Shown here: one piece after another, positions 12,538-61,217 of the stretch
Layout of the letters: every line of letters begins with the position of its first letter
How positions within the stretch are numbered: position 1 is the stretch's first letter
Source of the DNA: a virus
Virus record (IMG/VR): IMGVR_UViG_3300035670_000069
Location: 32,001-96,000 of that record
Strand: one strand, 5' to 3'
Length of the DNA stretch: 64,000 nt
Notes under the pieces: model-generated
What the model saw: the letters and a program-made list of their open reading frames with translations, nothing else
Databases searched by the model: none
What the model was told of the DNA's origin: nothing
Program-made: the position numbers and the translations under genes

Positions 12538-13041
12538 ATGGCAGAAGTAAATGCAACACCTAATCTACCAAGGCTAGTAATCCCAGAGTCCGTAGAAGTA
12601 AAAAATGTAAAGCCAGCAACCCCAGATGTAATTTTGTTTGATGATGAGTCTGTTCCAATTGAGGTAATGACTGACCTTATATTTGAAAATATTGGAGGGC
12701 AGGAATTAATAAATATCGTAAGATCAGATATAGTAAATGGACAAGATGTAATATATCAGCCAATCAAGAATTTAAGTAGTGTATATTTTCAGTATAACCC
12801 ACAAAATATATTAGGTCTTCAGGATATAGATTTTAATTATTTTAAAAAGTTTCCTATTAATTTTGCAAACAAGGTGCCAGAATGCGGAACTGGGCCAGAC
12901 TGTTCTATAGTATATATTGACTCAGAAACGGGTAATTTGATAATAAATGTAGTGAATATGGCAAACGACGAACAGGTAGAGGTTTCAATAATAGCAGACG
13001 GGGCAGTGTTAGATGATACAATATACGAGGTGAATTTATGA
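12538..13041 (+). CDS. virion structural protein (tail module), hypothetical
   Basis: ORF 12526..13041; ATG 12538 after SD-like gagg preferred. Confidence 0.5.
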   Translation: MAEVNATPNLPRLVIPESVEVKNVKPATPDVILFDDESVPIEVMTDLIFENIGGQELINIVRSDIVNGQDVIYQPIKNLSSVYFQYNPQNILGLQDIDFNYFKKFPINFANKVPECGTGPDCSIVYIDSETGNLIINVVNMANDEQVEVSIIADGAVLDDTIYEVNL

Positions 13042-15957: not shown

Positions 15958-16266
15958 GTGACCGATAAACAGAAGCGATTGGCTCTGTTAAGTAGGTTTG
16001 ATAAACACTATAAGTTTAAATTCGGACAGGCGCCAAAGTATAACAAGTGGGTAGAACAGTGGTCTGCTGATGCTTTAATAGAATCATATGGTCTCGATGG
16101 TTGTTATGAATTGTTAGAATATTATTTTGAAGTTACGGAAAATCCAACCTGGAATCATTTCTCATATATAGCACATGATATACTGGAAGCAATACAGGCA
16201 CAAAGCAAAGATTTAAAAGAAAGACTAGAGCGTAGACAGAAGGCAAAGGAATGGCTAAGTGAATAA
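15958..16266 (+). CDS. hypothetical protein upstream of helicase (possible loader/initiator)
   Basis: GTG start, overlaps dnaB start; function inferred from position only. Confidence 0.5.
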   Translation: MTDKQKRLALLSRFDKHYKFKFGQAPKYNKWVEQWSADALIESYGLDGCYELLEYYFEVTENPTWNHFSYIAHDILEAIQAQSKDLKERLERRQKAKEWLSE

Positions 16267-17485
16267 TACAGAGTCTAAGTTAATATCAGCCGTCCTTAAA
16301 GATAAGCAAGCACATGTAATGCTTCAGGCCAACGTCGATGGAATATTAAAAACTCACTTAGATGTATGGCAGTTTATTAGAAAATACTATGAGACTAATG
16401 GGACAGTTCCGCCAACAGATCTGGTGGTTGAAAAGTTTAGGGACTTTGAGCCAGCAGATGGTGTAGGTGCCACCAAACATCATCTTGAAGAGTTACAGTC
16501 TGAATATTTAGTAAATAGTTTAAAAGATATCATTCGTGCTGCAGCAACAGATGTTCAGGGTGGTTTGGGAGTAGAGGCGCTAGAGACATTAATTACTAAA
16601 ACTGCAGAATTAAGAAAAAATACTGCAGCAATTAGGGACATTGATGTAACAGATTTAGACTCTGCAATCGGGTATTTTGAAAATCTAAAAAAACAACAAG
16701 AGGCTGGTGCACTTGGAATTAAAACTGGCTTGCCAGGATTTGACAACTATTTACCATCTGGAATCATGCCAGGACAGTTAGGAGTTTTTCTTGCATATCC
16801 AGGCATAGGAAAGTCATGGCTGTCTCTCTATTTCGCCGTACAGGCTTGGAAACAGGGTCGTAGCCCAATGATCATAAGCCTTGAGATGTCTGAGGTTGAA
16901 GTTAGAAATCGTGTCTTTGCTATTATGGGCGAAGGAGTTTGGTCACATAGAAAATTAAGTGCTGGACAGATTGAACTAGATATGCTTAAGTCGTGGCACG
17001 AAAAACATGTTAAGGGTAAGCCAGAGTTTCATATTATATCTAATGATACAGGTGGAGACATTACTCCTTTAGTTTTAAGGGGAAAGATAGATCAATATAA
17101 ACCAGATTTTGTTATTGTAGATTACCTACAACTTATGTCTCCAAACCAAAAGTCTGATAATGAAACGATTAGAATGAAAAATTTATCTCGTGAACTAAAG
17201 TTAATGGCAATTTCAGAAGAAGTTCCTATTATTGCTATTTCTTCTGCTACTCCTGATGATGTAACTAAACTTGAAACCGTTCCAACTCTTGGTCAAACTG
17301 CATGGTCAAGACAGATTGCCTACGATGCTGACTGGGTATTAGCATTAGGTCGTGGCACAAATAGTGATATTATAGAGTGTGTTTTTAGAAAGAATCGTAA
17401 TGGTTTTATGGGAGAATTCTTAGTCCAGGCCGATTTTGATAAGGGATATTACAGATATAAAGATTATGAAGATAAGTCAGTATAA
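16259..17485 (+). CDS. dnaB: replicative DNA helicase DnaB-like
   Basis: Walker A AYPGIGKS, SLEMS, VIVDYLQLM, KNRNG. Confidence 0.93.
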   Translation: MNNTESKLISAVLKDKQAHVMLQANVDGILKTHLDVWQFIRKYYETNGTVPPTDLVVEKFRDFEPADGVGATKHHLEELQSEYLVNSLKDIIRAAATDVQGGLGVEALETLITKTAELRKNTAAIRDIDVTDLDSAIGYFENLKKQQEAGALGIKTGLPGFDNYLPSGIMPGQLGVFLAYPGIGKSWLSLYFAVQAWKQGRSPMIISLEMSEVEVRNRVFAIMGEGVWSHRKLSAGQIELDMLKSWHEKHVKGKPEFHIISNDTGGDITPLVLRGKIDQYKPDFVIVDYLQLMSPNQKSDNETIRMKNLSRELKLMAISEEVPIIAISSATPDDVTKLETVPTLGQTAWSRQIAYDADWVLALGRGTNSDIIECVFRKNRNGFMGEFLVQADFDKGYYRYKDYEDKSV

Positions 17486-19365: not shown

Positions 19366-22300
19366 ATGAACTACGTCCCATTACATTTACATACTCACTT
19401 TTCATTATTCGATGGTATTGGGTTGCCATCTGAATATGTTGAACGTGCTACAAAGTTGGGCATGCCTGCAATAGCGATTACTGATCATGGCTCACTTTCT
19501 GGTCATAGAGAAATGTATCGTGTTGCTAAATCTAATGGGATAAAGCCTATTCTTGGCATAGAAGGGTACATGTGCGAAGATAGATTTGATCAGCGAGATA
19601 AAGCAGATCGAACTACTCCACTTGATATGGTTTATAATCATATTATCCTTCTTGCCAAGAATAAACAGGGATTAGAAAATCTTAATAAATTAAATGAAAT
19701 AGCATGGACAGAAGGCTATTATAAAAAACCAAGAATAGATTTTGAGATTCTCTCAAAGTATAAAGAAGGAATTATTGTTTCATCTGCTTGCCCAAGTGGA
19801 ATTATTGCCAAGTCAATCGAACTTGGCGAACTTGGCATGGCAAAAAAATATATTAAATGGTTTAAAGAAGAGTTTGGCGATGACTATTACCTTGAGGTAA
19901 TGCCACACAATAATGAATCAATAAATAGTACCATATTACAACTAGCAGACGAGTTTAAGATTAAGCCTATAGTTACTCCAGACTGCCACCATGTTGATTC
20001 ATCACAAAAAGAAATACAAGAATTAAAATTAATTCTAAATACTTATTCTAATAAGATTCAAAAAGATGCTACATATGAGAAGTCGAAAAAGCAAGGGGAT
20101 CTAATGAAACGCCTTGACTATCTATATGGTGCAGATAGGCAAATGTCATTTAATAAGTTTGATATTCATTTGTTGTCATATGAAGAAATCCAGGCTGCTA
20201 TGGAAAAACAAGCAATTTTCAGAACAGATATTTACGAAAACACAATTGACCTTGCCAACAAGATTGAAGACTATGATATTAAAGATAATCTAAATCTATT
20301 ACCTGTTCAATACAAAAATCCAGACAAGCAATTGTCAGATCTTGCTTATCAAGGATTAAAAGATAAAGGCCTTGCAGATAATAAAGAATATATAGATAGG
20401 CTTGAAGAAGAACTAAAGGTTATCAAAGATAAAAAATTTGGTCCATACTTTCTTGTTGTTCAAAGTATGATATCTTGGGCTAAAAAAGAGGGGATTATGG
20501 TAGGCCCAGGCCGTGGATCGTCTGCTGGATCCTTGCTCTGCTACACCCTTGGAATTACAGATATTGATCCAATAGAGAACGGTCTTTTGTTTTTTCGATT
20601 TATTAACCCAGAGCGTAATGACTTTCCTGATATTGATACAGACATTCAAGATACACGTCGTGATGAAGTAAAAGACTACTTAATAAGACAGTACAAGCAT
20701 GTTGCTTCTATTGCAACATTTTTAGAATTTAAAGATAAAGGCGTAGTGCGAGATGTTGCTCGTGCTTTAAATATTCCATTGGCAGATGTTAACAAGGTTC
20801 TTAAGTTGGTTGACACTTGGGATGAATACTGCACTTCAAAAACAACTGCATGGTTTAGAGAGAAATATCCAGAGGTAGAACAATATGGAGAACAATTACG
20901 TGGTCGTATTAGAGGTACTGGCATACACGCTGCTGGTGTTGTCACTAGTAAAAATCCTATTTTTAGGTACGCACCGTTGGAGACACGCTCTTCTCCTGGT
21001 TCCGATGACCGCATACCTGTTGTGGCGGTGGACATGGAAGAGGCTGAAAAAATCGGGCTTATCAAGATAGATGCCCTTGGTCTTAAGACTCTTAGTGTTA
21101 TTAATGATACATTAAAAATTATTAAAGAAAGAGAGGGCACATCTATAGACTTGCTTAATATAGATATGTCTGATCAAAAGGTTTATCAAATGCTTTCAGA
21201 AGGATATACAAAGGGAGTCTTTCAGTGTGAAGCAACACCATATACCAACCTTTTGGTAAAGATGGGCGTAAAGAGTTTAGCAGAACTTTCAGCATCAAAT
21301 GCGCTTGTTCGTCCAGGAGCAATGAATACTATTGGGAAAGACTATATTGATCGTAAGCACGGCAGACAGGCGGTAAATTACCTTCATCAGACCATGAAGC
21401 CTTTCACAGAAGAAACATATGGGTGTATCCTATACCAAGAGCAGGTTATGCAGGCTTGCGTCGAGTTGGGAGGGATGTCTTGGTCTGAAGCCGATAAGGT
21501 TCGTAAGATTATTGGTAAAAAGAAAGATGCGAGAGAATTTGATGCGTTCCAGGAACAGTTTGTTAAAGGTGCTTCTAGGTTTATTAGTCCTAACCAGGCT
21601 CGTGATTTATGGCATGACTTTGAAGCGCATGCGGGATATTCGTTCAACAAGAGTCATGCGGTTGCTTATTCTACGCTCTCGTATTGGACGGCATGGCTAA
21701 AATACTATTATCCAATTGAGTTTATGTATTCACTATTAAAAAATGAAAAGGACAAAGATGCACGAACTGAATATCTTATTGAAGCGAAAAGAATGGGGAT
21801 TAGCATTAAACTACCTCATGTTAATGATTCGGATATTGATTTTAAGATTGAGGGTAAAGGTATTCGGTTTGGACTCTCAGGGATCAAGTTTATCTCTGAT
21901 AAGATTGCAGAACGATATATATCAGCACGACCTTTTAAGTCTTTTGAGGAACTTAGAGAGTTTACATTCACAAAAGGTAATGGAGTAAACAGCAGAGCCT
22001 TAGAAGCATTGAGACTTATAGGTGCTGCAACATTTCCAGATAATCCAAGAAATGATAATGAAATTAGAGATAATCTATATGAGTATCTAGGATTACCTGA
22101 ATTTACTCAAACTGTTCCATCACACTATCATGCATTTATTAATCCAGTAGAAGATTTCGAAGAAAAAGGTTCGTTTATTCTTATGGGTATGGTTAAGGGA
22201 ATTAAACGAGGCAAGGGTTGGTCTCGTGTAGAGATATTAGATAAGACTGGAAGCATAGGAGTATTTGATGAAGAGCAAACAACAATTGAGGCTGGACGAA

Positions 22301-22641
22301 GTTATATTGCACTCTGTTCTGATAATAGAATTGTTAGTGCTGTTCCTGTAGATGAAATAAAAGGATCAGACTCTGCCTTAATTAAATTCTTAAATTATAG
22401 AATGTTGCCATACAAAGACGATGAACTTTTTGTGGTATCATTTAAGCCTAGAATAACTAAAGCAGGAAAGAAGATGGCTTCATTAACATTAGCAGATACA
22501 TCAAGAGAACTTCATCCTGTAACTGTATTTCCTACAGCATTTGCTAAAGCATATATGAAAATTGAAGAGGGTAATGCATATAAATTTGAATTAGGAAAAA
22601 CAAAAGACGGAACTGTTATATTGGAGGATATAAATGTTTGA
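19366..22641 (+). CDS. dnaE: DNA polymerase III alpha subunit (family C)
   Basis: PHP HLHTHFSLFDG/TDHG, GRGSSAGS, FPDIDTD, HAAGVV, GYSFNKSH. Confidence 0.97.
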   Translation: MNYVPLHLHTHFSLFDGIGLPSEYVERATKLGMPAIAITDHGSLSGHREMYRVAKSNGIKPILGIEGYMCEDRFDQRDKADRTTPLDMVYNHIILLAKNKQGLENLNKLNEIAWTEGYYKKPRIDFEILSKYKEGIIVSSACPSGIIAKSIELGELGMAKKYIKWFKEEFGDDYYLEVMPHNNESINSTILQLADEFKIKPIVTPDCHHVDSSQKEIQELKLILNTYSNKIQKDATYEKSKKQGDLMKRLDYLYGADRQMSFNKFDIHLLSYEEIQAAMEKQAIFRTDIYENTIDLANKIEDYDIKDNLNLLPVQYKNPDKQLSDLAYQGLKDKGLADNKEYIDRLEEELKVIKDKKFGPYFLVVQSMISWAKKEGIMVGPGRGSSAGSLLCYTLGITDIDPIENGLLFFRFINPERNDFPDIDTDIQDTRRDEVKDYLIRQYKHVASIATFLEFKDKGVVRDVARALNIPLADVNKVLKLVDTWDEYCTSKTTAWFREKYPEVEQYGEQLRGRIRGTGIHAAGVVTSKNPIFRYAPLETRSSPGSDDRIPVVAVDMEEAEKIGLIKIDALGLKTLSVINDTLKIIKEREGTSIDLLNIDMSDQKVYQMLSEGYTKGVFQCEATPYTNLLVKMGVKSLAELSASNALVRPGAMNTIGKDYIDRKHGRQAVNYLHQTMKPFTEETYGCILYQEQVMQACVELGGMSWSEADKVRKIIGKKKDAREFDAFQEQFVKGASRFISPNQARDLWHDFEAHAGYSFNKSHAVAYSTLSYWTAWLKYYYPIEFMYSLLKNEKDKDARTEYLIEAKRMGISIKLPHVNDSDIDFKIEGKGIRFGLSGIKFISDKIAERYISARPFKSFEELREFTFTKGNGVNSRALEALRLIGAATFPDNPRNDNEIRDNLYEYLGLPEFTQTVPSHYHAFINPVEDFEEKGSFILMGMVKGIKRGKGWSRVEILDKTGSIGVFDEEQTTIEAGRSYIALCSDNRIVSAVPVDEIKGSDSALIKFLNYRMLPYKDDELFVVSFKPRITKAGKKMASLTLADTSRELHPVTVFPTAFAKAYMKIEEGNAYKFELGKTKDGTVILEDINV

Positions 22642-22951
22642 TGAGTTGGCAGAAGAAATACATAAAAACGCTATAGATAAAGGATTTTGGGATAGAACTG
22701 TAGATCCAATTTTTATAGCAAAACAGATGATGATGATTGTTTCTGAGGTATCAGAGGCAATGGAAGCGCTTCGTAAGGAGATGGATCCAGAGCAAATATC
22801 AGATGAGTTTGCAGATATTCTTATCCGTACCTTAGATTTATACGCAGGCATAGCAGAAGCAGGGTATGTAACAAAATCATTAGACTATGCAGTAAAAGAA
22901 AAGATGGAGAAGAACTCTAAAAGACCAATGAGGCATGGGGTGAGATTCTAA
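22634..22951 (+). CDS. MazG-like NTP pyrophosphohydrolase
   Basis: SEVSEAMEALRK...DEFADILIR. Confidence 0.8.
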   Translation: MFDELAEEIHKNAIDKGFWDRTVDPIFIAKQMMMIVSEVSEAMEALRKEMDPEQISDEFADILIRTLDLYAGIAEAGYVTKSLDYAVKEKMEKNSKRPMRHGVRF

Positions 22952-23964
22952 TGACAGTTTCAGTAGAAGATGTAATTGCTCAACTTAATCCAAAGTTAAG
23001 AAAAAGCATATTAGTTGGAGATGCTGTTCCTAAAACAGAGTATGCTCCAACGCCAAGTTATGGATTAAATAGAGCACTAAATGGTGGTCTTCCGTATGGA
23101 CGCCAAGTTCTTATTTGGGGAAGCAAATCTAGCGCAAAGTCTTCTCTATGTTTGCAAACAATAGGTCTCGCACAAAAAGAAGGAAAGATCTGCGCTTGGA
23201 TTGATGCAGAAATGTCTTATGACAAAGCATGGGCAGAAAGTCTTGGCGTTGACACCTCAAAGTTAATTGTTTCACAGGCAAGAACAATTAATGAGATGGT
23301 TGAGGTTGGGGTTAGTTTAATCGAGGCGGGAGTAGATATAATTGTTATTGATTCTATAACATCACTGCTTCCAGCGATATATTTTGAAAAAGATTCTGAT
23401 GAATTAAAGGCTCTTGAAAACACAAAACAGATTGGCGCAGAATCTAGAGATTTTAGTAATGCTTGGAAAATGCTTAACTATGCAAATAATAAAGTTAAGC
23501 CTACACTATTAATACTTATTTCTCAGTCTCGTAATAATATTAATGCAATGTATACTAGCCAGCAACCAACTGGTGGTCAGGCTACAAAGTTTTACTCATC
23601 TACAGTTGTTAAGTTGTTTTCTTCTGAATCAGATAACCAAGCCTTGAAGGGAAAGATATATGTTGGCGACAAGGCTATTGAAGAAAAGGTTGGAAGAAAA
23701 GTTAGATGGGAACTCCAGTTTAGTAAAACCAGTCCTGCCTTTCAGTCTGGTGAATATGATTTCTATTTTAGAGGCGATAACCTGGGCATCGATGGGGTCG
23801 CTGATCTTGTTGATACTGCTGAGTTAATGGGTATAGTTGAACGTACTGGCGCTTGGTATTTGCTTCCAGATGGCTCAAAGGTTCAGGGTAGAGAAGGATT
23901 TGTCAATAGAGTAAGAGAGGACCTTGATCTACAAGACATGATTAAGAACAAAATCAGTGGATAA
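22951..23964 (+). CDS. recA: RecA-like recombinase
   Basis: GGLPYGR, GSKSSAKSS, WIDAE, VIDSI, TGGQATKFYSS, GAWY. Confidence 0.92.
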   Translation: MTVSVEDVIAQLNPKLRKSILVGDAVPKTEYAPTPSYGLNRALNGGLPYGRQVLIWGSKSSAKSSLCLQTIGLAQKEGKICAWIDAEMSYDKAWAESLGVDTSKLIVSQARTINEMVEVGVSLIEAGVDIIVIDSITSLLPAIYFEKDSDELKALENTKQIGAESRDFSNAWKMLNYANNKVKPTLLILISQSRNNINAMYTSQQPTGGQATKFYSSTVVKLFSSESDNQALKGKIYVGDKAIEEKVGRKVRWELQFSKTSPAFQSGEYDFYFRGDNLGIDGVADLVDTAELMGIVERTGAWYLLPDGSKVQGREGFVNRVREDLDLQDMIKNKISG

Positions 23965-59102: not shown

Positions 59103-59519
59103 ATGGTAAGTTCATTTAGTCTGGATCTATTTAAGGATCCATTTTTTATTGGTTTCAACAAAGAGTTGGACCGTCTTTCAAACATCCATCGTGAGGCAAC
59201 TCGTCAATCCTATCCACCATATGATGTGGTAAGAATTGATGAAGATACTTATAGATTATCTTTGGCTATTGCTGGCTTTAATAAAGATGAGATTGAGGTA
59301 TCTGTTGAAAACGGAAGTCTAATTATCAAGGGCGAAAAGGCTGAAGAAGAATTAGACTATCTTCATAAAGGCATTGCAACCAGAAAGTTCACAAGAACAT
59401 TTGCTCTTGGAGAACACATGGAAGTAGATCGTGCTGAGGCTGAAGATGGAATTCTGCATGTTGTTATTTTACGCAACATCCCAGAAGAAAAGAAACCAAA
59501 AACAATCAAAATAAAATAA
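59103..59519 (+). CDS. small heat shock protein Hsp20 (IbpA-like)
   Basis: YPPYDV, LAIAGF, YLHKGIATRKFTRTF.L, DGIL; start ATG 59103. Confidence 0.93.
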   Translation: MVSSFSLDLFKDPFFIGFNKELDRLSNIHREATRQSYPPYDVVRIDEDTYRLSLAIAGFNKDEIEVSVENGSLIIKGEKAEEELDYLHKGIATRKFTRTFALGEHMEVDRAEAEDGILHVVILRNIPEEKKPKTIKIK

Positions 59520-59521
59520 AC

Positions 59522-59530
59522 TGATATGAT
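59522..59530 (+). promoter_or_regulatory. extended -10 TGaTATGAT
   Basis: ends about 8 nt before the structured element. Confidence 0.5.
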
Positions 59531-59537
59531 ATAGTCA

Positions 59538-59617
59538 GGTCCCCTGCAGGACCTTGGGATGATTAGTTACCATCTTATTAACCTGGGCCTTCGTGCCTGA
59601 ATTTCCTGCGGGGGATT
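59538..59617 (+). ncRNA. candidate structured small RNA (three-way junction)
   Basis: 13-bp closing stem gtcccctgcagga/tcctgcgggggat enclosing two hairpins; G-U pairs favour + strand. Confidence 0.5.
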
Positions 59618-59621
59618 TATA

Positions 59622-59918
59622 ATGTCCAGTATAATTATCCTATCTATGACAGACAAAGAACTTCATAGGCAAAAGCAGGCTTATAAACAAAGACTGACAG
59701 AAATAAAACAGTCTAGTGGATGTGTAGACTGCGGAGAAAATAATCCAATAGTATTAGACTTTGATCATCTTAAAGATAAAAAATACAATGTATCCAGAAT
59801 GATTCACGATGGTTTTTCCTGGAAATCAATTAAAAAAGAAATAGCAAAGTGCGAGGTTGTATGTGCTAATTGCCACAGGATAAGAACTCATAACAGGTTT
59901 ATTGAAAATGCTAGTTAG
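59622..59918 (+). CDS. HNH endonuclease
   Basis: CVDCG...LDFDH...CEVVCANCHR; start may be ATG 59646. Confidence 0.85.
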   Translation: MSSIIILSMTDKELHRQKQAYKQRLTEIKQSSGCVDCGENNPIVLDFDHLKDKKYNVSRMIHDGFSWKSIKKEIAKCEVVCANCHRIRTHNRFIENAS

Positions 59919-60094
59919 ATATTTTTAATGTGGTTGATTATGGCATCTGATAAATTTTTATCAAAATGGTGATGGCCAGTTGCTAATTTTTCTAATTGTG
60001 GTTGCAAAGAAAGTACTATCTTTTCTTTAGTGGCCTGCATAATTTGATGAGTCAGTATTTCTGCTTTTTGTTCTGTAGTTAATGATTCTTCCAT
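59915..60094 (-). CDS. 59-aa hypothetical protein (absent from ORF track), leaderless
   Basis: MEESLTTEQKAEILTHQIMQATKEKIV...; TGgTAAAAT 6 nt upstream on - strand. Confidence 0.6.
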   Translation of the reverse strand: MEESLTTEQKAEILTHQIMQATKEKIVLSLQPQLEKLATGHHHFDKNLSDAIINHIKNI

Positions 60095-60100
60095 ACCTTA

Positions 60101-60125
60101 ATTTTACCATAACATATGATATACT
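60101..60125. promoter_or_regulatory. second divergent extended -10 pair
   Basis: TGgTAAAAT on - (60101-60109) and TGaTATACT on + (60117-60125), each 6 nt from an ATG. Confidence 0.7.
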
Positions 60126-60131
60126 ATTTCT

Positions 60132-61217
60132 ATGCCATATCATGTAGGTGCTAAAGGGTCATACGGGTGTTCTGGATACCCTGCCTTAAAAGACACAGGA
60201 GAGGTTATGGGGTGCCATAAGACTCGCCGTGAGGCAGCAGCACAGATCTATGCTATAAACCGCTCTGAGGGCAATATAGGCAAGGCTATGGTCAAAGAGG
60301 GCGATATGGTGATGGCCCCACACGAAGAAGAAATGTATGTTGGCCGTGTAGTTCATGTAATGACAGAAGGTATGCTTGGAATGCCAGGATCAGAATATAG
60401 TATTGAGGCTACTTCAACAGAGCCTGCTATACTTATCCAACTGTTTGAAATGGAAGAAGGCGGTCTTGAAGAGACTGAATATTTCGTTGGAGCAAAAGCA
60501 TCGGAGGTAATGGTAATGCCATCATTAGAAGAAAACGTAGGCATGGATAAAGCATACGAAGGATGCGGATGTCCAATGTGTAAAGAATTAGATGTAACTT
60601 GTGACCAATGCCCACAATGTCAGTCTGGAGATATGAAATCGGATTGTTGTGGTAGTGTTGAAAAGAAATCGCCATGTTGGGAAGGATATGTACAGCGTGG
60701 AATGAAGCCAGGTAAAAATGGTAGCATGGTTCCTAATTGTGTCCCTGTTAAAAAAGCAGATGATCTTTGGGAAGATGATGATACAGTTGTTTACGAAACA
60801 GAATCGATGTTAAAGGCTGAAGGATATTCTCCACCAGCAGGTGCTCGTGCAGCAGCACGTAAAGCGATTAGATTTAAAGAACAAGGTAAGGCAAAAGGTG
60901 CGGGTACATCAGTAGGATGGACTCGTGCAGGACAGTTAGCAAGAGGAGAATCACTTTCTCTAAGCACTGTTAAAAGAATGTACTCTTATTTTTCTCGTCA
61001 CGAGGTTGATAAAAAGGGGAAGGATTGGGCTAATCAATCAAATCCGTCTAATGGGTACATAATGTGGTTAGCATGGGGTGGGGATGCTGGCTATTCTTGG
61101 TCACGTCGTATCGTGAATGCAGAAAAAGATAAGGCATTGTTTGCTGATACCTTTAATACAATAGAAAAACAAAGCAAGAAAATTCGTGGTAGCGGTAATG
61201 TCTTCTGGCAAATATAA
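60132..61217 (+). CDS. modular protein, probably head-associated
   Basis: GCH.T...A.AQ module, Cys-rich module, PCWEGY..GMK..VPNCVP module, VKRMYSYFSRH...WLAWGGDAG module. Confidence 0.6.
   Translation: MPYHVGAKGSYGCSGYPALKDTGEVMGCHKTRREAAAQIYAINRSEGNIGKAMVKEGDMVMAPHEEEMYVGRVVHVMTEGMLGMPGSEYSIEATSTEPAILIQLFEMEEGGLEETEYFVGAKASEVMVMPSLEENVGMDKAYEGCGCPMCKELDVTCDQCPQCQSGDMKSDCCGSVEKKSPCWEGYVQRGMKPGKNGSMVPNCVPVKKADDLWEDDDTVVYETESMLKAEGYSPPAGARAAARKAIRFKEQGKAKGAGTSVGWTRAGQLARGESLSLSTVKRMYSYFSRHEVDKKGKDWANQSNPSNGYIMWLAWGGDAGYSWSRRIVNAEKDKALFADTFNTIEKQSKKIRGSGNVFWQI

Follow-up and report, generated by a model that had tools for sequence, protein, structure and literature searches.

Introduction

The closest described arrangement to the one reported here comes from phage T4, whose endonuclease SegB homes within the region of the tRNA genes (PMC2330249). 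A 2026 study found SegB to be significantly co-localised with tRNA genes and able to amplify RNA and other anti-defence genes (PMC13096335). We examined a stretch of 64,000 nucleotides (hereafter the window), comprising bases 32001-96000 of the 108,556-bp IMG/VR virus record IMGVR_UViG_3300035670_000069 (CheckV completeness 100%), and characterized an RNA element of approximately 80 nt that stands immediately upstream of a free-standing HNH endonuclease gene. The element was found to be a three-way junction that covaries across its relatives, and it appears to be a small RNA gene in its own right. As in the T4 tRNA region with segB (PMC2330249, PMC13096335), a gene for a structured RNA lies beside that of a free-standing endonuclease, the two are inherited as a block, and their presence is patchy among collinear phages. 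In contrast to the segB case, no tRNA is involved here, the nuclease consists of an HNH core of 90 amino acids (aa) instead of a GIY-YIG enzyme, and its cleavage and homing are presumed.

RNA structure has also been associated with homing endonuclease genes of the T4 type, in which hairpins hide the start site in read-through transcripts (review PMC2988022). The present locus shares with these a structure just in front of a selfish nuclease gene, which is served by a promoter of its own and lacks a good ribosome-binding site. It differs in that the RNA lies upstream of the nuclease promoter, leaves the start codon free, has a promoter of its own and persists without the nuclease. A structured RNA encoded beside a gene with an HNH domain is likewise known from the HEARO or omega RNA of IscB; however, IscB is a RuvC and HNH protein of 400-500 aa with a guide RNA of 200-300 nt, whereas the protein here comprises 90 aa and the RNA 80 nt, with no guide-like variable segment.

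Two classes of phage RNA have a similar architecture. The antisense immunity RNAs C4 of P1/P7 and CI of P4 (RF01695) are also phage RNAs of about 80 nt with paired ends, two hairpins and loops presumed to be active, but the RNA described here has no match to an Rfam model, has no nearby complementary targets, and occurs in another phage group and context. The packaging RNA (pRNA) of phi29-type phages (Phage_pRNA, RF00044) is similarly a three-way-junction RNA with a long helix formed by its 5' and 3' ends; in this case too no Rfam match was found, the present RNA is much shorter, and its two loops are not mutually complementary. Because the element is accessory and absent from complete relatives, it would also be ill-suited to an essential packaging part such as the phi29 pRNA. 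Structured-RNA predictions from IMG/VR have furthermore yielded 8,495 unnamed candidates (PMC10690425), which share our data source and whose median size is near that of our RNA. The motif may be among these candidates; the text of that paper describes no such motif.

A structured RNA that covaries across its relatives

A reading of the bare sequence that preceded this work (the first-pass annotation) had described a G+C-rich island in A/T-rich DNA, with a closing stem enclosing two hairpins and an extended -10 box just upstream. The stem, both hairpins and the -10 box were all recovered at the positions it had assigned to them, and the island was reflected in base composition, with matched RNA copies at 44-54% G+C compared to approximately 35% in the window. 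The parts of the element, all on the plus strand, are as follows.

59537-59618, plus strand: structured RNA of ~80 nt, a three-way junction (minimum-free-energy fold and covariance model R1)
59537-59551, plus strand: 5' arm of the closing helix, pairing with 59604-59618, with a conserved core of 11 pairs
59552-59554, plus strand: junction strand J1/2, CCU, within the conserved (A)C-CUU motif (alignments A3 and A4)
59555-59577, plus strand: hairpin 1, in which 59555-59561 pairs with 59571-59577; stem of 6-7 bp, loop of 9 nt
59578-59584, plus strand: junction strand J2/3, A/U-rich, variable across copies in sequence and length (~7-14 nt; alignments A3 and A4)
59585-59598, plus strand: hairpin 2, in which 59585-59588 pairs with 59595-59598; conserved GGC/GCC core, loop of 6 nt
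59599-59603, plus strand: junction strand J3/1, GAAUU, holding the 3' part of the nearly invariant YUGAA motif (C59597, U59598, G59599-A59601; alignment A3)
59604-59618, plus strand: 3' arm of the closing helix (minimum-free-energy fold and covariation), followed by a U/A-rich stretch

In the window copy, the closing stem at 59539-59551/59604-59616 comprises 13 bp including two G-U pairs, and it lengthens to 15 bp in the minimum-free-energy fold (59537-59551/59604-59618). U59555 pairs with A59577 in this fold, and the loop of hairpin 1 reads AUUAGUUAC (59562-59570). The plus-strand fold was calculated at -34.6 kcal/mol (z = -2.9 compared to dinucleotide shuffles, 1 of 200 shuffles being as good), with a weaker fold on the minus strand (-27.3 kcal/mol; z = -1.9). 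An alternative local hairpin, GGUCC...GGACC at 59539-59553, is possible in the window copy and was rejected, its 5' half not being kept in several subgroups.

Stronger evidence than the fold of a single sequence was obtained from the relatives, since the covariation of the closing helix among them places the element beyond chance. A pattern drawn from the invariant parts of the RNA was encountered at no fewer than 118 IMG/VR loci, of which 100 were searched with a covariance model (R1) built from 24 distinct RNA copies. The model matched 95 of these 100 loci, with a single match per locus, and covariation was scored on the resulting 69 distinct sequences; the counts given below for promoters, tail and hairpin 1 were taken from 111 distinct copies. 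Across the 69 sequences the 11-pair core of the closing helix was 99.9% paired, with 8 of the 11 pairs changing on both sides, and none of 500 shuffles reached either the observed covariation score or the observed percentage paired. When the 3' partner was slid by 1-3 columns, pairing fell to 28-62%. The helix is continuous and covaries freely except in its CAGG/CCUG and C/G runs. It was also noted that the helix holds 25 G-U or U-G cells compared to one unpaired cell, with many more G-U pairs in the hairpins; as such cells would be A-C mismatches on the opposite strand, the structure belongs to the plus-strand RNA. The absence of covariation, which the first-pass annotation had named as a reason to discard the element, was not observed, and covariation among the relatives is strong.

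With copies anchored on the 9-nt loop, the first pair of hairpin 1 was G-C in 111 of 111 copies and the fourth was A-U in 95 and G-C in 14, while the second and fifth pairs alternate between G-U and G-C and a one-base change in stem length is mirrored on both strands. The loop itself, NUUAGUUAC, is invariant in the family, with UAGUUAC the most invariant stretch of all. Hairpin 2 has two invariant pairs and one that alternates between G-U and G-C, and one subgroup swaps the entire hairpin for GGC-GCAA-GUC with a GNRA loop, which indicates that hairpin 2 itself matters and that its loop sequence does not. Near-invariant positions across the family include the CUU before hairpin 1, the G-UGG of the 5' strand of hairpin 1, UAGUUAC, the GGC core of hairpin 2 and the UGAA that follows it. 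Overall, about 35 of the approximately 80 bases are invariant or nearly so, paired positions included. A divergent subgroup was found to carry a UACG insertion in J1/2.

Predicted promoters and transcription unit

We then considered the signals that flank the RNA, together with the gene that follows it.

59522-59530, plus strand: promoter P1, an extended -10 element TG-A-TATGAT (TG at 59522-59523, TATGAT at 59525-59530), ending 7 nt before G59538
59630-59635, plus strand: promoter P2 of the HNH gene, -10 box TATAAT, 10 nt before the ATG at 59646
59646-59918, plus strand: free-standing HNH endonuclease gene, 90 aa from the conserved start (phrog_2255, E = 1e-24)

The extended -10 that had been proposed upstream of the RNA is thus present as a TG and a TATGAT, 7 nt before the first paired G. 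A TANNNT hexamer ending 3-10 nt before the first paired base was found in 99 of the 111 copies, as TACAAT in 38, TATAAT in 36, TATGAT in 5, and other forms in the rest. The other 12 copies belong to one subgroup, whose -10 box is set back by approximately 38 nt and precedes an additional 5' hairpin. A 5' extension of ~35 nt with a hairpin GUCG...CGAC, and a -10 box shifted by the same amount, was observed at L201, L234, L245, L258 and similar loci. Downstream of the closing helix, the first 10 nt across the 111 copies are 52% T, 30% A and 3% G, a composition that resembles a terminator tail.

A second -10 box follows approximately 10-15 nt past the helix in 109 of the 111 copies, with 63 fitting the extended form TGNTANNNT. 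This promoter, P2, sits 8-12 nt before the ATG of the next gene, and the HNH gene lacks a Shine-Dalgarno sequence; its mRNA would therefore be leaderless or nearly so. Since P2 lies downstream of the RNA, an HNH mRNA made from it would exclude the RNA, which is thus not the leader of the HNH gene. In the two copies without P2, a convergent gene comes next and a clear U-run follows the helix. The HNH reading frame just downstream of the RNA, as the first-pass annotation had it, was recognised as an HNH endonuclease by its match to phrog_2255. The listed frame begins at the ATG at 59622, which overlaps a TATAAT and is absent from most relatives; the start is most likely the ATG at 59646 (MTDKE...), which the relatives conserve.

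The spacing of P1, the U/A-rich tail and the varied neighbours, which include convergent genes, are the features expected of a small RNA gene that stands alone, and we consider that this is most likely what the element is. Its transcript would be released as a species of about 80 nt. The suggestion of a new phage small RNA was therefore borne out by a covarying structure, a conserved promoter of its own, the lack of an Rfam family, and occurrence on more than 100 contigs. A further proposal, that the element is a cis-regulator of the nuclease, was not supported: P2 follows it in 109 of 111 copies, the genes downstream can be unrelated or convergent, and pairing between the loop and the HNH gene was at chance (see below).

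Comparison with known RNA families

A cmscan search of the window with Rfam 15 at gathering thresholds recovered only four tRNAs, all elsewhere in the window, and none at the RNA. When positions 59300-60200 were searched at E <= 10 against the 4,227 families of Rfam 15, no match to the element was obtained; a GEBRO hit at 59595-59760 overlapped it at one edge, at 11.6 bits compared to a gathering threshold of 284.7, and lies almost wholly in the HNH frame. The RNA, which the first-pass annotation could not match to hammerhead, twister, pistol, HDV or SRP consensus, thus matches no family of Rfam 15. Similarly, the statement that it is not a tRNA agrees with ARAGORN and RF00005, which find nothing at the element. 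We rejected a tRNA or tRNA-like identity on the basis of ARAGORN in default and relaxed modes, RF00005, a closing helix of 11-15 bp and a main loop of 9 nt. The mitochondrial mode of ARAGORN at an 80% threshold returned only inconsistent junk at the element.

Other identities were examined and set aside. For hammerhead and other small self-cleaving ribozymes, J2/3, which would be needed for CUGANGA, varies among copies, and no Rfam ribozyme model matches. A purine-type riboswitch is contradicted by the variable J2/3, the stable P1 helix of 11-15 bp, the separate downstream promoter in 109 of 111 copies, and the copies that face a convergent gene. Y RNA and YrlA were rejected as the terminal helix lacks a conserved bulge and covaries freely, and neither is matched in Rfam. 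An IscB-omega RNA or HEARO system was rejected given a protein of 90-98 aa with only an HNH match, an RNA of ~80 nt and no HEARO match. The element is also not a repeated PeSL-like cassette of promoter and stem-loop, with one copy in the window and in the genome and one per relative. Likenesses to box C/D, K-turn and loop-E motifs and to a tRNA-Asn GUUA anticodon loop were seen by eye, and none of them holds across the family. With regard to an intrinsic terminator, which the first-pass annotation had set aside in its simple form, the signs are mixed. The helix is G+C-rich and the 10-nt tail is 52% U and 30% A; however, a junction of about 52 nt lies inside the helix and the U-runs of many tails are interrupted. 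A generic terminator scan does not call the element.

Further searches were made beyond Rfam. A blastn search of 50,697 phage records found no relative of the locus or of the RNA element, and a full-text literature search found no description of the motif. In bacterial and archaeal genomes (596 Gb), a pattern that was too loose gave loci of which 100 were tested; these corresponded to chance, with no model matches, and this search is uninformative about hosts. The RNA family is accordingly uncatalogued as judged from Rfam 15, and it may be among the unnamed candidates of PMC10690425.

Distribution of the RNA and the HNH gene

The first-pass annotation had proposed to ask whether the RNA travels with the upstream hsp20 gene or with the HNH gene. 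Relatives confirmed by tblastn in IMG/VR numbered 232 for HNH and 398 for hsp20, and 80 loci of each were examined. The RNA was found upstream of HNH in 76 of the 80 HNH loci, mostly directly before the HNH promoter, compared to 17 of the 80 hsp20 loci, and all 17 of the latter also carry HNH. The other 63 hsp20 loci have neither RNA nor HNH, and most of them proceed from hsp20 directly to a homologue of a gene for a 361-aa protein, with a small reverse open reading frame (ORF) in between at some. Of the four HNH loci without the RNA, three (L036, L037 and L039) are HNH-only alleles, and at L055 the upstream sequence is too short for a decision. Given this distribution and its own -10 box, the RNA appears to be more than an hsp20 terminator.

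In about ten HNH loci the RNA lies ~800 nt away, with a peroxidase-like ORF in between. This ORF, of about 260 aa, was noted at L023, L029, L061, L063-L065, L068, L075, L076 and L081. Genes for PstS, Dps and a 2OG-Fe(II) oxygenase also enter the island in different relatives, which marks it as a hot spot where auxiliary genes gather.

Alignment of filled and empty alleles (alignment A6) gave the approximate extent of the insertion in the window.

59520-59926, plus strand: RNA and HNH insertion (approximate extent)

The filled allele of about 405 bp replaces approximately 100 nt of the empty allele, which holds an ordinary terminator hairpin, GAGCA...TGCTC, and a T-run. This hairpin is followed by TTTTATTATG in the empty allele at L104:3395-3500, and the same spacer was observed at L106, L125, L131, L140 and L157. 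Some RNA-bearing loci (e.g., L177, L202 and L203) retain the GAGCA...TGCTC hairpin upstream of the RNA promoter.

All ORFs of this genome were compared with those of ten relatives, which makes eleven near-complete genomes in total (CheckV completeness 100% in ten and 93% in one). RNA and HNH are both missing from five complete relatives, and the five others (four at 100%, one at 93%) carry exactly one RNA copy. Genomes with and without the RNA are interleaved in relatedness, with three of each kind at a mean core identity of 73-74% to this genome. HNH was the only real gene present in all six RNA-bearing genomes and in none of the five others, and no other co-distributed partner protein was found among the ORFs of this genome. 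A second ORF emerged at a loose cut-off (5 of 6 compared to 1 of 5) and was judged a spurious frame antisense to the 361-aa gene. The patchy presence of the cassette among equally related genomes indicates that RNA and HNH form an accessory cassette, as expected for a homing element, with presence and absence polymorphic at one site (between hsp20 and the 361-aa gene) in collinear genomes.

The neighbours of the RNA are not fixed. The gene after it is HNH in 67 of the 87 copies with a callable downstream ORF, and in the other 20 it is a 361-aa homologue, Dps, a tetrapyrrole-methylase-like gene or another gene. The gene before it is hsp20 in 67 of 93 copies and otherwise PstS, Dps or others. 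Copies without a linked nuclease, most of them in the subgroup with the UACG insertion, keep every invariant base and the covarying helix, which indicates that purifying selection on the RNA persists without a linked nuclease. In the genomes of five such RNA-only loci, the only HNH paralogues found are 35-45% identical and lie 1.4-8.5 kb away.

The HNH family in cultured phages

The HNH family was encountered in 475 phage records, often with several copies per genome. In each of the five Streptomyces phages inspected (StarPlatinum, Tribute, Wofford, Bordeaux and JimJam), the closest HNH homologue flanks a tRNA gene, either starting 47-59 nt after it or ending just before or overlapping one. 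The homologue in JimJam (L466) lies between two tRNA-Pro(tgg) genes that in Tribute (L401) are a few bases apart, and it looks like a homing endonuclease insertion into a tRNA array. From this habit of flanking tRNA genes, the HNH protein appears to behave as a free-standing homing endonuclease that inserts next to genes for stable RNAs. Where the cultured relatives have a tRNA gene, the present phages have the 80-nt RNA. A PDB sequence search with the HNH protein returned no match. It was also noted that a minus-strand sigma-70-like promoter match at 59937-59964 (TTGATA, 16 nt, CATAAT, with a TG) is oriented to read into the HNH gene from its 3' end. An antisense transcript could result, and the regional count of such matches is not above that of shuffles.

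Search for complementary targets

Pairing between the RNA and possible targets was assessed at several levels. The invariant loop paired with the HNH start region at -4.8 kcal/mol, compared to -4.1 +/- 1.8 kcal/mol in shuffles, 32% of which did as well. For J2/3 and for the whole RNA against HNH starts, cognate pairs were no better than non-cognate ones. Antisense control of HNH was therefore rejected, as loop, J2/3 and whole-RNA pairing are all at chance level. Within the phage genome there is no perfect complement of the loop except on the antisense strand of the RNA gene itself. Two complements with one mismatch lie at gene starts (window position 13040 and genome position 7510) and are within chance for A/T-rich DNA, and a search for complementary sites within 3 kb of the RNA gave nothing convincing.

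Possible roles of the RNA

Taken jointly, we favour, with about even confidence, the reading that the element is a gene for a trans-acting stable RNA of ~80 nt, of an undescribed family, which a homing endonuclease has adopted as a neighbour or landing site. Transcription would begin at the first base of the G+C-rich helix of 11-15 bp in which the two ends of the RNA are joined, and this pairing would shield the RNA from exonucleases. The RNA would act in trans, its invariant loop and junction being recognised by a protein of the host or the phage or by a second RNA. The HNH protein would be a homing endonuclease whose family inserts next to genes for stable RNAs; here the conserved RNA gene would be its neighbour or landing site, both spreading by gene conversion. 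Several points weigh against this reading. The promoter, start site and 3' end of the RNA were all deduced from sequence, and no convincing complementary target site was found in this phage genome. The imperfect U-tail in many copies means that some transcripts may read through into the next gene. The very tight linkage of RNA and HNH would equally fit a functional tie between them.

As to what a trans-acting RNA would do, we prefer, as a guess only and an unlikely one, that it serves as a decoy or sponge in anti-defence or host takeover. Through the invariant loop and junction of its nuclease-resistant fold it would sequester a host protein, such as a defence nuclease that targets RNA or a regulator that binds it. 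The HNH protein would spread, and perhaps amplify, the RNA gene among co-infecting phages, as a non-tRNA counterpart of the SegB and tRNA system (PMC13096335). A decoy is one of several possible trans roles, because the density of invariant bases (about 35 of about 80) recalls a ligand- or protein-binding fold or a ribozyme more than an antisense RNA.

The main rival, which we rate as improbable, is that the RNA serves the nuclease cassette in cis, as a module for its control or insulation. Transcription arriving from hsp20 would be stopped or buffered, leaving HNH expressed only from its own weak leaderless promoter, and a read-through mRNA with the RNA as a long leader lacking a Shine-Dalgarno sequence would be poorly translated, which resembles the restraint of T4 homing endonucleases. 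The joint gain and loss of RNA and HNH at one locus would fit, as would the replacement of the canonical hsp20 terminator by the RNA in filled alleles, the G+C-rich helix followed by a U/A-rich tail, and the lack of a Shine-Dalgarno sequence at HNH. However, a terminator or insulator requires no promoter of its own and no invariant 9-nt loop or junction, and the RNA is fully conserved in the 20 of 87 copies without an adjacent HNH. The canonical hairpin persists upstream of P1 in some loci, another gene separates RNA and HNH in about ten, and complementarity between the RNA and HNH starts is at chance, with cognate pairs equal to non-cognate ones. A simpler version, in which the RNA is the mere 3' end of the hsp20 transcript and acts as an elaborate terminator or stabiliser, is less likely than the insulator and is the reading we find hardest to credit. 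The start of the RNA 18 nt after the hsp20 stop codon, its helix and tail, and its replacement of the empty-allele terminator are in keeping with such a role, but it occurs in only 17 of 80 hsp20 loci, a gene other than hsp20 precedes it in 26 of 93 copies, and the helix holds ~52 nt with invariant loops and is preceded by a conserved -10 box of its own.

Two further readings assign the RNA a specific partner. That it is a cofactor of the small HNH protein (scaffold, specificity subunit or inhibitor), forming with it a ribonucleoprotein nuclease, is less likely than the insulator and in our view very unlikely. The first-pass annotation had suggested an RNA partner of the HNH protein, and the linkage is as it would require, since the RNA stands at 76 of 80 HNH loci and HNH is the sole real co-distributed gene. 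The 90-aa protein moreover reaches barely beyond the catalytic core and has no visible DNA-binding domain, so that its specificity might come from elsewhere. Against such a partnership stand the RNA-only loci (20 of 87), five of whose genomes hold only 35-45% identical HNH paralogues 1.4-8.5 kb off, and the HNH-only alleles (L036, L037 and L039). HNH genes also occur in several copies beside tRNA genes, those of cultured phages adjoin ordinary tRNA genes without this RNA, and apart from the A/U-rich J2/3 the RNA has no variable single-stranded segment capable of acting as a guide. A small ribozyme or a metabolite aptamer (an "orphan riboswitch" without an expression platform) is likewise less likely than the insulator, and we regard it as quite unlikely. 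Invariant bases crowd the junctions, one loop and even the paired positions, as is typical of RNAs of this kind, and the overall shape is like that of small three-way-junction aptamers and ribozymes. Nonetheless, no Rfam ribozyme or riboswitch matched even at E <= 10, J2/3 is variable, unlike the conserved junctions that form the ligand site or active site in purine-type and hammerhead RNAs, the closing helix of 11-15 bp is too stable for switching, and the downstream gene has its own promoter.

Phage group and neighbouring genes

The wider window provided an indication of the phage group and contains the following replication genes.

19366-22641: DnaE-type DNA polymerase III alpha
16259-17485: DnaB-like helicase
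22951-23964: RecA

Among cultured phages, the best match of the polymerase was to Streptomyces cluster BE phages (Stanwilliamsviridae), at 55% identity, which indicates an actinobacterial host despite the 35% G+C content. Promoters consisting of a -10 element only and leaderless starts agree with an actinobacterial host. The RNA-bearing uncultured phages are probably actinobacterial phages that are kin of the Streptomyces Stanwilliamsviridae.

The hsp20 gene occupies 59103-59519 (Pfam HSP20, E = 4e-19), with the RNA beginning 18 nt past its stop codon. In this phage group the RNA resides in an island of stress and auxiliary genes, which include hsp20, Dps, PstS and the peroxidase-like gene. 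On the other side of the RNA and HNH cassette, the 361-aa protein gene (60132-61217, plus strand) is the usual right-hand neighbour and closes the rightward block. The protein is conserved and has no Pfam match, its N-terminus reads MPYxVGxKGSYGCxGYP, its C-terminal part matches phrog_2859 (unknown function), and its N-terminal part has a weak match to a head-maturation-protease PHROG.

Significance

The element adds a well-supported structured RNA, widespread in one uncultured phage group, to those that are absent from Rfam. RNAs this heavily conserved usually bind something specific, which makes it a good candidate for biochemical follow-up. Should it turn out to act as an anti-defence decoy or as the cofactor of a nuclease, RNA-based phage weaponry would gain a new class; if it proved only to insulate the cassette, it would represent a modest addition to the regulation of homing endonucleases. 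The filled, RNA-only and empty alleles found at one locus in equally related genomes constitute a natural experiment on the way in which homing endonucleases come to be linked to genes for stable RNAs besides tRNAs and transfer them from phage to phage.

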